Shown piece by piece: positions 9,747-37,060 of a stretch of DNA of 64,000 nt. Both the position numbers and the translations under genes were made by a program. The stretch comes from Escherichia coli (GTDB lineage: Bacteria > Pseudomonadota > Gammaproteobacteria > Enterobacterales > Enterobacteriaceae): the NCBI RefSeq assembly GCF_041886205.1, contig NZ_CP169029.1; one strand, 5' to 3'. How positions within the stretch are numbered: position 1 is the first letter of the stretch; each line of letters starts with the position of its first letter. The notes below the pieces were generated by a model. The model did not search any database. It was not told the origin of the DNA and worked only from the letters and a program-made list of their open reading frames with translations.

Positions 9747-9845
9747 GCCGGATGCGGCGTGAACGCCTTATCCGGCCTACAAAATCGCGCAAATTCAATA
9801 TATTGCACCATCTTTGTAGGCCTGATAAGCGTAGCGCATCAGGCA
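9747..9845. repeat. REP/BIME palindromic units
   Basis: GCCGGATGCGGCGTGAACGCCTTATCCGGCCTAC ... GCCTGATAAGCGTAGCGCATCAGGC. Confidence 0.75.
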
Positions 9846-13632: not shown

Positions 13633-14163
13633 ATGGCTATCACTGGCATCTTTTTCGGCAGCGACACCGGTAATACCGAAAATATCGCAAAAATGATTCA
13701 AAAACAGCTTGGTAAAGACGTTGCCGATGTCCATGACATTGCAAAAAGCAGCAAAGAAGATCTGGAAGCTTATGACATTCTGCTGCTGGGCATCCCAACC
13801 TGGTATTACGGCGAAGCGCAGTGTGACTGGGATGACTTCTTCCCGACTCTCGAAGAGATTGATTTCAACGGCAAACTGGTTGCGCTGTTTGGTTGTGGTG
13901 ACCAGGAAGATTACGCCGAATATTTCTGCGACGCATTGGGCACCATCCGCGACATCATTGAACCGCGCGGTGCAACCATCGTTGGTCACTGGCCAACTGC
14001 GGGCTATCATTTCGAAGCATCAAAAGGTCTGGCAGATGACGACCACTTTGTCGGTCTGGCTATCGACGAAGACCGTCAGCCGGAACTGACCGCTGAACGT
14101 GTAGAAAAATGGGTTAAACAGATTTCTGAAGAGTTGCATCTCGACGAAATTCTTAATGCCTGA
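13633..14163 (+). CDS. fldA: flavodoxin 1
   Basis: 176-aa frame [28 protein letters not shown] (FMN-binding flavodoxin signature). Confidence 0.97.
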
Positions 14164-14365
14164 TGTGATGCGGCGTAGACTCATGTCTACGCCGTATTAA
14201 TAGATAATGCCAATCAAAATAATTGCTACAAATTTGTAACTTTTGCTGTTGTACCTGTACAATGTCCCGGAGTTCAAGTGGCCTTGCCGTTGTAAATGTA
14301 AGCTGTGCCACGTTTTTATTAACAATATTTGCCAGGGACTTGTGGTTTTCATTTAGGCGTGGCAA

Positions 14366-14388
14366 TTCTATAATGATACGCATTATCT
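14366..14388 (+). promoter_or_regulatory. Fur box-like operator at uof/fur promoter
   Basis: TATAATGATACGCATTATC resembles GATAATGATAATCATTATC Fur consensus, just upstream of and overlapping the uof start. Confidence 0.5.
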
Positions 14389-14459
14389 CAAGAGCAAATT
14401 CTGTCACTTCTTCTAATGAAGTGAACCGCTTAGTAACAGGACAGATTCCGCATGACTGA
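14373..14459 (+). CDS. uof: upstream-of-fur leader peptide Uof
   Basis: 28-aa frame MIRIISRANSVTSSNEVNRLVTGQIPHD; its stop overlaps the fur ATG (translational coupling). Confidence 0.7.
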   Translation: MIRIISRANSVTSSNEVNRLVTGQIPHD

Positions 14460-14898
14460 TAACAATACCGCCCTAAAGAAAGCTGGCCTGAAAGTAACGC
14501 TTCCTCGTTTAAAAATCCTGGAAGTTCTTCAGGAGCCGGACAACCATCACGTCAGTGCGGAAGATTTATACAAACGTCTGATCGATATGGGTGAAGAAAT
14601 TGGTCTGGCTACGGTATATCGCGTACTGAACCAGTTTGACGACGCTGGTATCGTCACCCGCCACAATTTTGAAGGCGGTAAATCCGTATTTGAACTGACA
14701 CAGCAACATCACCACGATCACCTGATTTGCCTCGACTGCGGCAAGGTTATCGAATTTAGTGATGATTCCATCGAAGCGCGTCAGCGTGAAATTGCCGCAA
14801 AACATGGCATTCGCCTGACTAACCACAGTCTCTATCTTTACGGTCACTGTGCCGAAGGCGATTGCCGCGAAGATGAGCACGCGCACGAAGGCAAATAA
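14452..14898 (+). CDS. fur: ferric uptake regulator Fur
   Basis: 148-aa ORF MTDNNTALKKAGLKVTLPRLKILEVLQEP...HHHDHLICLDCGKV. Confidence 0.97.
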   Translation: MTDNNTALKKAGLKVTLPRLKILEVLQEPDNHHVSAEDLYKRLIDMGEEIGLATVYRVLNQFDDAGIVTRHNFEGGKSVFELTQQHHHDHLICLDCGKVIEFSDDSIEARQREIAAKHGIRLTNHSLYLYGHCAEGDCREDEHAHEGK

Positions 14899-14914
14899 GT
14901 CAGCCTGAACGAGA

Positions 14915-14941
14915 AAAGCCAACCTGCGGGTTGGCTTTTTT
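14915..14941 (+). terminator. bidirectional rho-independent terminator between fur and chiQ
   Basis: AAAAGCCAACC-TGCG-GGTTGGCTTTTTT hairpin with A/T runs on both sides. Confidence 0.7.
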
Positions 14942-14981
14942 ATGCAAGGGAAATAAGAAAAGCGAGAGTTACAGCTCTCAC

Positions 14982-27808: not shown

Positions 27809-27885
27809 GGCTACGTAGCTCAGTTGGTTAGAGCACATCACTCATAATGATGGGGTCACAGGTTCGAATCCCGTCGTAGCCACCA
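27809..27885 (+). tRNA. metT: tRNA-Met (elongator, anticodon CAU)
   Basis: 77-nt GGCTACGTAGCTCAGTTGGTTAGAGC...GTAGCCACCA, anticodon loop CTCATAA. Confidence 0.95.
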
Positions 27886-27893
27886 TCTTTTTT

Positions 27894-27978
27894 GCGGGAG
27901 TGGCGAAATTGGTAGACGCACCAGATTTAGGTTCTGGCGCCGCAAGGTGTGCGAGTTCAAGTCTCGCCTCCCGCACCA
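27894..27978 (+). tRNA. leuW: tRNA-Leu (anticodon UAG)
   Basis: 85-nt GCGGGAGTGGCGAAATTGGTAGACGC...CTCCCGCACCA with long variable arm; anticodon loop TTTAGGT. Confidence 0.95.
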
Positions 27979-28001
27979 TTCACCAGAAAGCGTTGTACGG
28001 A

Positions 28002-28076
28002 TGGGGTATCGCCAAGCGGTAAGGCACCGGTTTTTGATACCGGCATTCCCTGGTTCGAATCCAGGTACCCCAGCCA
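28002..28076 (+). tRNA. glnU: tRNA-Gln (anticodon UUG)
   Basis: 75-nt TGGGGTATCGCCAAGCGGTAAGGCACCGGTTTTTGATACCGG...CCCCAGCCA. Confidence 0.95.
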
Positions 28077-28110
28077 TCTTCTTCGAGTAAGCGGTTCACC
28101 GCCCGGTTAT

Positions 28111-28185
28111 TGGGGTATCGCCAAGCGGTAAGGCACCGGTTTTTGATACCGGCATTCCCTGGTTCGAATCCAGGTACCCCAGCCA
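28111..28185 (+). tRNA. glnW: tRNA-Gln (anticodon UUG)
   Basis: Identical copy of the glnU sequence. Confidence 0.95.
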
Positions 28186-28200
28186 TCGAAGAAACAATCT

Positions 28201-28277
28201 GGCTACGTAGCTCAGTTGGTTAGAGCACATCACTCATAATGATGGGGTCACAGGTTCGAATCCCGTCGTAGCCACCA
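28201..28277 (+). tRNA. metU: tRNA-Met (elongator, anticodon CAU)
   Basis: Identical copy of the metT sequence. Confidence 0.95.
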
Positions 28278-28324
28278 AATTCTGAATGTGTCGAATATGT
28301 TCGGCAAATTCAAAACCAATTTGT

Positions 28325-28399
28325 TGGGGTATCGCCAAGCGGTAAGGCACCGGATTCTGATTCCGGCATTCCGAGGTTCGAATCCTCGTACCCCAGCCA
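28325..28399 (+). tRNA. glnV: tRNA-Gln (anticodon CUG)
   Basis: 75-nt TGGGGTATCGCCAAGCGGTAAGGCACCGGATTCTGATTCCGG...; anticodon CTG is wild type (not the supE amber-suppressor allele). Confidence 0.95.
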
Positions 28400-28436
28400 A
28401 TTTATTCAAGACGCTTACCTTGTAAGTGCACCCAGT

Positions 28437-28511
28437 TGGGGTATCGCCAAGCGGTAAGGCACCGGATTCTGATTCCGGCATTCCGAGGTTCGAATCCTCG
28501 TACCCCAGCCA
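28437..28511 (+). tRNA. glnX: tRNA-Gln (anticodon CUG)
   Basis: Identical copy of the glnV sequence. Confidence 0.95.
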
Positions 28512-35993: not shown

Positions 35994-36902
35994 ATGCAAT
36001 TACGTAAAACTGCCACAGCAATCCTCGCCCTGGCGCTTTCCGCAGGACTGGCACAGGCAGATGACGCCGCCCCGGCAGCAGGCAGTACGCTGGACAAAAT
36101 CGCCAAAAACGGTGTGATTGTCGTCGGTCACCGTGAATCTTCAGTACCTTTCTCTTATTACGACAATCAGCAAAAAGTGGTGGGTTACTCGCAGGATTAC
36201 TCCAACGCCATTGTTGAAGCAGTGAAAAAGAAACTCAACAAACCGGACTTGCAGGTAAAACTGATTCCGATTACCTCACAAAACCGTATTCCACTGCTGC
36301 AAAACGGCACTTTCGATTTTGAATGTGGTTCTACCACCAACAACGTCGAACGCCAAAAACAGGCGGCTTTCTCTGATACTATTTTCGTGGTCGGTACGCG
36401 CCTGCTGACCAAAAAGGGCGGCGATATCAAAGATTTTGCCGACCTGAAAGGCAAAGCCGTAGTCGTCACTTCCGGCACTACTTCTGAAGTTTTGCTCAAC
36501 AAACTGAATGAAGAGCAAAAAATGAATATGCGCATCATTAGCGCCAAAGATCACGGTGACTCTTTCCGTACCCTGGAAAGCGGTCGTGCCGTTGCCTTTA
36601 TGATGGATGACGCTCTGCTGGCCGGTGAACGTGCGAAAGCGAAGAAACCAGACAACTGGGATATCGTCGGCAAGCCGCAGTCTCAGGAAGCCTACGGTTG
36701 CATGTTGCGTAAAGATGATCCGCAGTTCAAAAAGCTGATGGATGACACTATCGCTCAGGTGCAGACTTCCGGTGAAGCGGAAAAATGGTTTGATAAATGG
36801 TTCAAAAATCCAATTCCGCCGAAAAACCTGAACATGAATTTCGAACTGTCAGACGAAATGAAAGCACTGTTCAAAGAACCGAATGACAAAGCACTGAACT
36901 AA
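35994..36902 (+). CDS. gltI: glutamate/aspartate ABC transporter periplasmic binding protein
   Basis: 302-aa frame from MQLRKTATAILALALSAGLAQA (signal peptide) within track ORF 35919..36902. Confidence 0.95.
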   Translation: MQLRKTATAILALALSAGLAQADDAAPAAGSTLDKIAKNGVIVVGHRESSVPFSYYDNQQKVVGYSQDYSNAIVEAVKKKLNKPDLQVKLIPITSQNRIPLLQNGTFDFECGSTTNNVERQKQAAFSDTIFVVGTRLLTKKGGDIKDFADLKGKAVVVTSGTTSEVLLNKLNEEQKMNMRIISAKDHGDSFRTLESGRAVAFMMDDALLAGERAKAKKPDNWDIVGKPQSQEAYGCMLRKDDPQFKKLMDDTIAQVQTSGEAEKWFDKWFKNPIPPKNLNMNFELSDEMKALFKEPNDKALN

Positions 36903-37058
36903 TTACAAGAACCAGGGGCGGAAATTCTAGCCCTCTCGATTGTTACGTAGCACGGACAGACTATACGCCTGATGGTCGTTCCCCATCGGGCCTGAAAACC
37001 GCAATACGCTGGGTAACAATCTTCGAGGGTAGCAGTTAACGCTGCTACCCTCTTTTTT
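36903..37058 (+). ncRNA. sroC: SroC small RNA (processed from gltI-gltJ spacer)
   Basis: Position between gltI and gltJ with strong intrinsic terminator hairpin; boundaries approximate. Confidence 0.5.
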
Positions 37059-37060
37059 CT
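37025..37060 (+). terminator. rho-independent terminator in gltI-gltJ spacer
   Basis: GAGGGTAGCAG-TTAAC-GCTGCTACCCTC followed by TTTTTTCT. Confidence 0.85.

Follow-up and report, generated by a model that had tools for sequence, protein, structure and literature searches.

Which elements of this Escherichia coli DNA make up the leader of fur, does the short reading frame that runs into the fur start correspond to uof, and how much of the regulation ascribed to uof can be read from the DNA? In enteric bacteria Fur is the master regulator of iron, and uof serves as a textbook case of a small RNA acting via an upstream open reading frame. The window analysed here is a stretch of 64,000 nucleotides (64 kb), in which the region of interest is the E. 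coli ybfF-ybfE-fldA-uof-fur-chiQ-chiP segment. We are highly confident that it carries the already described E. coli uof-fur leader with its known regulatory arrangement. The uof-fur observation is correct but ordinary, and finding it here adds nothing new.

According to the sequence and the list of open reading frames, the ATG at 14373 starts a 28-codon frame (14373..14459, + strand; translation MIRIISRANSVTSSNEVNRLVTGQIPHD) whose TGA occupies 14457-14459. The fur gene (14452..14898, + strand, 148 aa; NCBIfam equivalog NF006999, 309 bits, and RefSeq annotation) begins with the ATG at 14452-14454. The two frames share 8 nt, ATGACTGA, and the uof TGA ends 5 nt past the fur ATG. The gene upstream is fldA (flavodoxin 1; 13633..14163, + strand), placed by RefSeq on identical DNA and by the list of reading frames. 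A RefSeq coding sequence, ‘uof: fur leader peptide’, maps exactly to 14373..14459 on DNA that is 100% identical to the window, and in MG1655 this gene is annotated as b4637, ‘RyhB-regulated fur leader peptide’. The predicted product scores 85.2 bits against the NCBIfam equivalog NF011344 ‘fur leader peptide’ (cutoff 71), aligning over residues 1-28 of 28, and its exact sequence is that of UniProt LPFUR_ECOLI. The initial annotation, which had described a 28-codon frame overlapping the fur ATG, was right on this point. Its codons include the rare ATA and AGA and four UCN serine codons, UCA at codon 6 among them.

The peptide is identical to that of K-12, and no base differs from MG1655 between the fldA stop codon and the end of uof. 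Between 14150 and 14900 the strain of the window differs from MG1655 by only four substitutions, all of them downstream of uof (within or after fur). An 851-nt query covering the fldA 3′ end, uof and fur (14100-14950) was 100% identical to several E. coli chromosomes and had a match in 5424 of 5426 complete E. coli genomes; two genomes had no match, and one of the 5427 matching places was on a plasmid. Elsewhere in the window, Rfam gave a gathering-score match to the sroC small RNA (36898-37060, 170.8 bits), a cluster of seven tRNA genes (27809-28508) and a marginal match to the ES036 (CssrF) small RNA (9781-9823, 40.3 bits against a cutoff of 37.6).

The presence of a Fur-box-like sequence over the uof start had also been claimed, and the search bore this out. 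TATAATGATACGCATTATC (14369..14387, + strand) agrees with the 19-bp consensus GATAATGATAATCATTATC at 16 of 19 positions and is the sole match with three or fewer mismatches in the 64 kb, where 0.01 would be expected by chance. This predicted operator overlaps both the uof ATG and the -10 element of a proximal fur promoter (TTTTCA-17-TATAAT; 14346..14374, + strand; 10 of 12 matches in a promoter scan). The Fur box begins with a perfect -10 hexamer, TATAAT (14369-14374), with the -35-like TTTTCA 17 bp upstream, and the final two letters of this hexamer supply the A and T of the uof start codon. TATAAT is invariant in 64 aligned Enterobacteriaceae leaders. From the promoter geometry, the proximal start site is predicted at ∼ 14380-14383, within uof codons 3-4, and a start site of the proximal fur promoter within uof is stated in the literature (PMC6191717; PMC7867234). 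With such a geometry, RNA made from the Fur-repressed proximal promoter is expected to begin within uof (∼ 14381) and should be unable to encode it.

A second promoter-like site, TTGTAA-18-TACAAT, was found by the scan at 14234..14263 (+ strand), within a conserved block at ∼ 14218-14264 in which CTACAA.TTT.TAACTTT...CTGTACAAT is invariant or nearly invariant across 14 genera. This block of the fldA-fur spacer (CTACAAATTTGTAACTTTT-N9-CTGTACAAT) equals the proximal -10/Fur box in conservation, and probably represents the distal uof promoter plus a regulator site. Zheng et al. are said to have mapped, in 1999, an OxyR site upstream of fur. A separate promoter upstream of uof, Puof, is named in the literature (PMC6191717; PMC7867234); we infer that the site at 14234..14263 is probably this promoter, whose transcript would hold the whole of uof.

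Transcripts may also enter from fldA. The fldA intrinsic terminator (14171..14201, + strand) consists of a 10-bp stem, CGGCGTAGAC / GTCTACGCCG, followed by a weak T-tail; published Term-seq data place a 3′ end at MG1655 710,897(-), which is position 14201 of the window, with an intrinsic terminator score of 19.7 (PMC7815308 supplement). Read-through transcripts of fldA carry uof-fur, and cotranscription of ybfE-fldA-uof-fur was seen in an RNA-seq study (PMC4161252). With the proximal start predicted inside uof, a transcript has to come from the distal promoter or from fldA read-through to encode uof, and the layer of control in which RyhB acts on uof initiation should therefore apply to these transcripts only. 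The initial annotation had spoken of the known autoregulatory and RyhB-sensitive leader arrangement. Its identification as uof stands, and the arrangement can be refined: the Fur box is the operator of the proximal promoter, whose -10 takes in the A and T of the uof start codon. Hence Fur autoregulation (at the DNA level, on the proximal promoter) and uof/RyhB control (at the RNA level, on transcripts that start upstream of 14373) are superimposed and act largely on different transcripts.

Coupling and RyhB control themselves rest on published experiments, not on sequence. According to the literature, fur translation is coupled to uof, RyhB blocks uof initiation and the UCA at codon 6 is read in a MiaB-dependent manner (PMC7534054; PMC7466049; PMC6191717; PMC12683245); the experiments on uof translation, on coupling and on the RyhB block of initiation are as summarised in PMC7534054 and PMC7466049, and the MiaB feature is described in PMC7466049. 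In the proposed mechanism, ribosomes translating uof would be delivered to, or would re-initiate at, the weakly Shine-Dalgarno-driven fur start, which would amount to translational coupling. Under iron limitation RyhB and Hfq would pair around the uof start and its early codons; this pairing would block uof initiation and lower Fur synthesis. Decoding of UCA at codon 6 would need tRNA carrying the MiaB-made ms2i6A modification. Separately, at the DNA level, Fe-Fur bound to the Fur box would repress the proximal promoter, with whose -10 the box coincides.

Both Shine-Dalgarno sequences are weak. The uof Shine-Dalgarno interaction is calculated at -3.6 kcal/mol, and 23% of random ATGs in the window do at least as well. 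That of fur (AGGA, 14438..14441, + strand, with a 10-nt spacer, lying in uof codons 22-24) has an anti-Shine-Dalgarno duplex of -4.0 kcal/mol, and 18% of random ATGs do as well. A80 and ACAGGAC are invariant in the 64 aligned Enterobacteriaceae leaders.

For the pairing with RyhB, duplexes of 30-nt windows with the RyhB core were calculated and set against a background distribution; the RyhB sequence used is 100% identical in E. coli genomes (BLAST) and matches Rfam RF00057. A bipartite complementary region is predicted at 14374..14401 (+ strand), in which 14374-14379 would pair with RyhB 60-65, and GAGCAA at 14392-14397 with UUGCUC of RyhB 42-47, G44 and C45 included. Inversion of these two bases (G44C/C45G) is reported to abolish repression of uof and fur, and according to the same paper RyhB reduces the short fur transcript without reducing the long uof-fur transcript (PMC6191717). 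Complementarity above background was not found at uof in these 30-nt windows: the best duplex over uof reaches -12.5 kcal/mol, against a mean of -10.7 (sd 3.9) and a 5% quantile of -18.0 for random 30-mers of the window. In a published benchmark the literature model of the RyhB-uof duplex was likewise not computationally predictable, and some validated pairs were unsupported by up to three of nine aligned sequences (PMC3018821). Unconstrained RNAduplex calculations with full-length RyhB and the whole leader returned a meaningless duplex of ∼ 120 nt with very large internal loops and were replaced. At the ryhB locus itself (301-390 of locus L002, E. coli SK1144) and at hits H11-H13 the RefSeq records inspected show no annotated feature over ryhB; RF00057 matches at 83 bits.

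How far the frame is conserved was assessed in 80 Enterobacterales fur loci, in each of which the leader was scored. An ORF of 28-30 codons running from the ATG embedded in the -10 to a TGA at +5 is present in 36 of the 80. Seven loci have an ORF that ends at a +1 TGA, four have the leader ATG in frame with fur, one has lost the uof stop (49-aa ORF), and in 32 the frame is truncated or has no ATG. Among the 36 uof-type leaders the distance between the two ATGs is 79, 82 or 85 nt, the frame being kept by multiples of three. Among the truncated leaders, those of Salmonella arizonae, C. sedlakii and two other close relatives have each lost 1 nt, and the frame is also broken, by different indels, in Klebsiella/Raoultella and in Atlantibacter.

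Some of the deviating loci deserve description. The 1-nt deletion of C. sedlakii, Enterobacter sp. Bisph1, Citrobacter sp. Awk 4 and Salmonella arizonae falls into the loop of the hairpin described below, and the ORF ends after 16 codons at a TGA in the hairpin 3′ arm, 30 nt before fur. At four loci (Buttiauxella, Dryocola and an Enterobacter sp.) the -10-embedded ATG stands ∼ 66-69 nt upstream of fur and in frame with it, with no stop between them; here transcripts from an upstream promoter could encode a Fur protein with 22-23 extra N-terminal residues (172-173 aa). The lost stop is that of Enterobacter asburiae, where a synonymous ACT-to-ACA change in fur codon 2 removes the uof TGA and extends the frame to 49 codons, 68 nt into fur. 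Codon 6, which is TCA in the window in agreement with the MiaB-decoding model (PMC7466049), is a proline codon in Enterobacter and Kosakonia.

Both ends of the frame are set by other elements: the uof ATG is fixed by the -10/Fur box TATAATGA, and the overlapping TGA is forced by the Met-Thr-Asp codons of Fur. TATAATG is present in 73 of 81 leaders and ATGACTGA in nearly all loci. With the conserved flanks held fixed, 40% of dinucleotide shuffles of the intervening sequence leave the 28-codon frame open, and the open frame alone is not beyond chance. An ORF reaching fur is kept in 49 of the 73 TATAATG leaders against 31 expected from the shuffles; the loci are not phylogenetically independent. 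A comparison of codon variants among 23 distinct sequences of the 79-nt class detected no constraint at the peptide level (distinct synonymous to nonsynonymous variants 14:47 in the uof frame versus 12:52 and 7:50 in the shifted frames) and no third-position excess in the uof frame. The lack of peptide constraint fits a leader in which translation, not the product, matters; it fits the absence of any coding role equally well. By itself the sequence supports the uof mechanism, or a coding function, weakly, and neither the reading frame nor the RyhB pairing would be supportable from it alone.

A feature of the leader that does stand out is an RNA hairpin in uof codons 11-18 (14404..14424, + strand), the only helix in the centroid fold. 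Its arms, TCACTTC (14404-14410) and GAAGTGA (14418-14424), form 7 bp around the loop TTCTAAT (14411-14417), and other genera have hairpins with different stem sequences at the same position. RNAalifold applied to a MAFFT alignment missed it, divergent genera being misaligned, and was replaced by a covariance model built from 21 leaders, with which 57 Enterobacteriaceae leaders were aligned. In this alignment 89.7% of cells are paired, and six of eight pairs have changed on both sides (compensatory changes); an alignment fitted to the model favours the hairpin, and slid and shuffled controls were set beside it. Covariation is 0.209 versus 0.129 in the shuffles, none of 500 of which reach 0.209, and at most 0.062 in the slid controls. 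The hairpin is kept in species whose uof frame is broken and is conserved more widely than the frame. Among the RNA features of the leader, the strongest constraint falls on this conserved hairpin and not on the peptide. The overall structure of the leader was not found to be unusual (z = +0.43 and +0.14). No U-tract or alternative pairing partner is present at 14404-14424, and the hairpin is not a terminator. Among its possible roles are mRNA stabilisation and, because the ARN-rich AAGAGCAAA precedes it, a context for Hfq/RyhB.

Published Term-seq coordinates, mapped via MG1655, also reveal an abundant RNA 3′ end at 14453 (+ strand), the U of the fur AUG, in the uof/fur overlap. This end, MG1655 710,645(-), was recorded with 137,086 and 180,817 reads in two conditions (PMC7815308 supplements 1 and 3), ∼ 3 times the reads of the fldA terminator; it has a Rho score of 1.10 (No) and an intrinsic terminator score of 1.13, and is absent from the main-text discussion (PMC7815308). 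The covarying hairpin and this abundant non-terminator end together allow a reading in which the leader RNA acts beyond uof. A stable fragment with the RyhB-complementary site would then accumulate and could serve RyhB/Hfq as a decoy, or work as a switch governed by processing. We regard this as improbable. If it were true, the fragment would measure ∼ 73 nt when transcribed from the proximal promoter and ∼ 185 nt when transcribed from the distal promoter; translation of uof would then matter only for those transcripts, a minority, whose start lies upstream of the Fur-repressed promoter.

Three other interpretations of the locus have to be weighed against the described uof-fur leader. The mechanical list of reading frames contains a 78-aa ORF that is open from a TTG (14223..14459), and one could take this ORF for the genuine gene and uof for its C-terminal portion. 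Its span is the one under which the initial annotation reported the leader (14223-14459). The initial annotation had already called this ORF spurious, a product of the six-frame track merging uof into a longer frame, and we agree. The TTG has no Shine-Dalgarno sequence (+0.6 kcal/mol) and sits within the promoter block conserved in 14 genera, upstream of the distal -35. The in-frame extension before the uof ATG is not conserved, ranging from 9 to 69 codons in relatives (E. albertii has 9, another E. coli 32), and RefSeq and NCBIfam know only the 28-aa product. The ORF was rejected as a gene, and the chance that it is one is negligible. Equally negligible is the chance of a classical attenuation leader of the trpL/thrL kind that controls a downstream terminator, a reading that was also rejected. 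A short leader ORF, rare codons and an internal hairpin are what such a leader would offer, but this is a single hairpin with neither U-tract nor alternative partner, and the alternative terminator/antiterminator hairpins of a trpL-type attenuator were not found. Moreover, the leader is not unusually structured, and the 3′ end at 14453 scores neither as an intrinsic terminator nor as Rho-dependent.

The third idea is that the uof frame is largely incidental. What is conserved would then be the overlapping non-coding elements (the -10/Fur box, the hairpin and the fur Shine-Dalgarno sequence), the ATG and TGA would be by-products of TATAATGA and the Fur Met-Thr-Asp codons, and RyhB/Hfq would work at the level of the leader RNA itself (by affecting its stability or by occluding it directly) and not via a translated upstream ORF. 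Several observations speak for this: codon-level constraint is lacking, shuffling often leaves the frame open, close relatives have broken it independently, and hairpin and Shine-Dalgarno sequence are conserved beyond it. In addition, proximal-promoter transcripts would have no uof ATG, and the mRNA that RyhB is reported to affect is the short fur mRNA starting inside uof (PMC6191717). Against this stand the published translation of uof, its coupling to fur and the RyhB block of its initiation (PMC7534054; PMC7466049), the 3-nt indels that keep the frame across genera, and the excess of leaders whose ORF reaches fur, in loci that are not phylogenetically independent. On balance we consider an incidental frame unlikely. 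The preferred reading remains the described uof-fur leader, of which the peptide match, the overlap with fur, the Fur box and the UCA at codon 6 are all found here. Since the uof start codon is part of the Fur-repressed -10, care is called for in working with start-codon mutants and in assigning the transcript of origin.

The ‘RyhB-regulated fur leader peptide’ uof was reportedly described by Vecerek, Moll and Blasi in EMBO J 2007. Among sRNA-controlled leader peptides, thrL and ivbL, which are repressed by GcvB, resemble it in that the sRNA blocks initiation at a short upstream ORF and thereby lowers downstream expression (PMC7534054). However, thrL and ivbL act by transcription attenuation, whereas uof, according to the literature, acts by translational coupling via the stop/start overlap; neither the fold nor the Term-seq scores indicate a terminator after uof. 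Most other Enterobacterales fur leaders share the -10/Fur-box core and the fur Shine-Dalgarno sequence and start, and those of Enterobacteriaceae share the position of the hairpin, but less than half of the loci have the uof-type frame; elsewhere it is replaced by a +1-frame ORF or a fur-in-frame ATG, or is truncated or absent, and Yersinia enterocolitica is reported to have no uof (PMC7867234). With the uof of E. coli K-12 (b4637, LPFUR_ECOLI) the leader in the window shares the peptide, the fur overlap, the Fur box and the UCA at codon 6, and the two do not differ.
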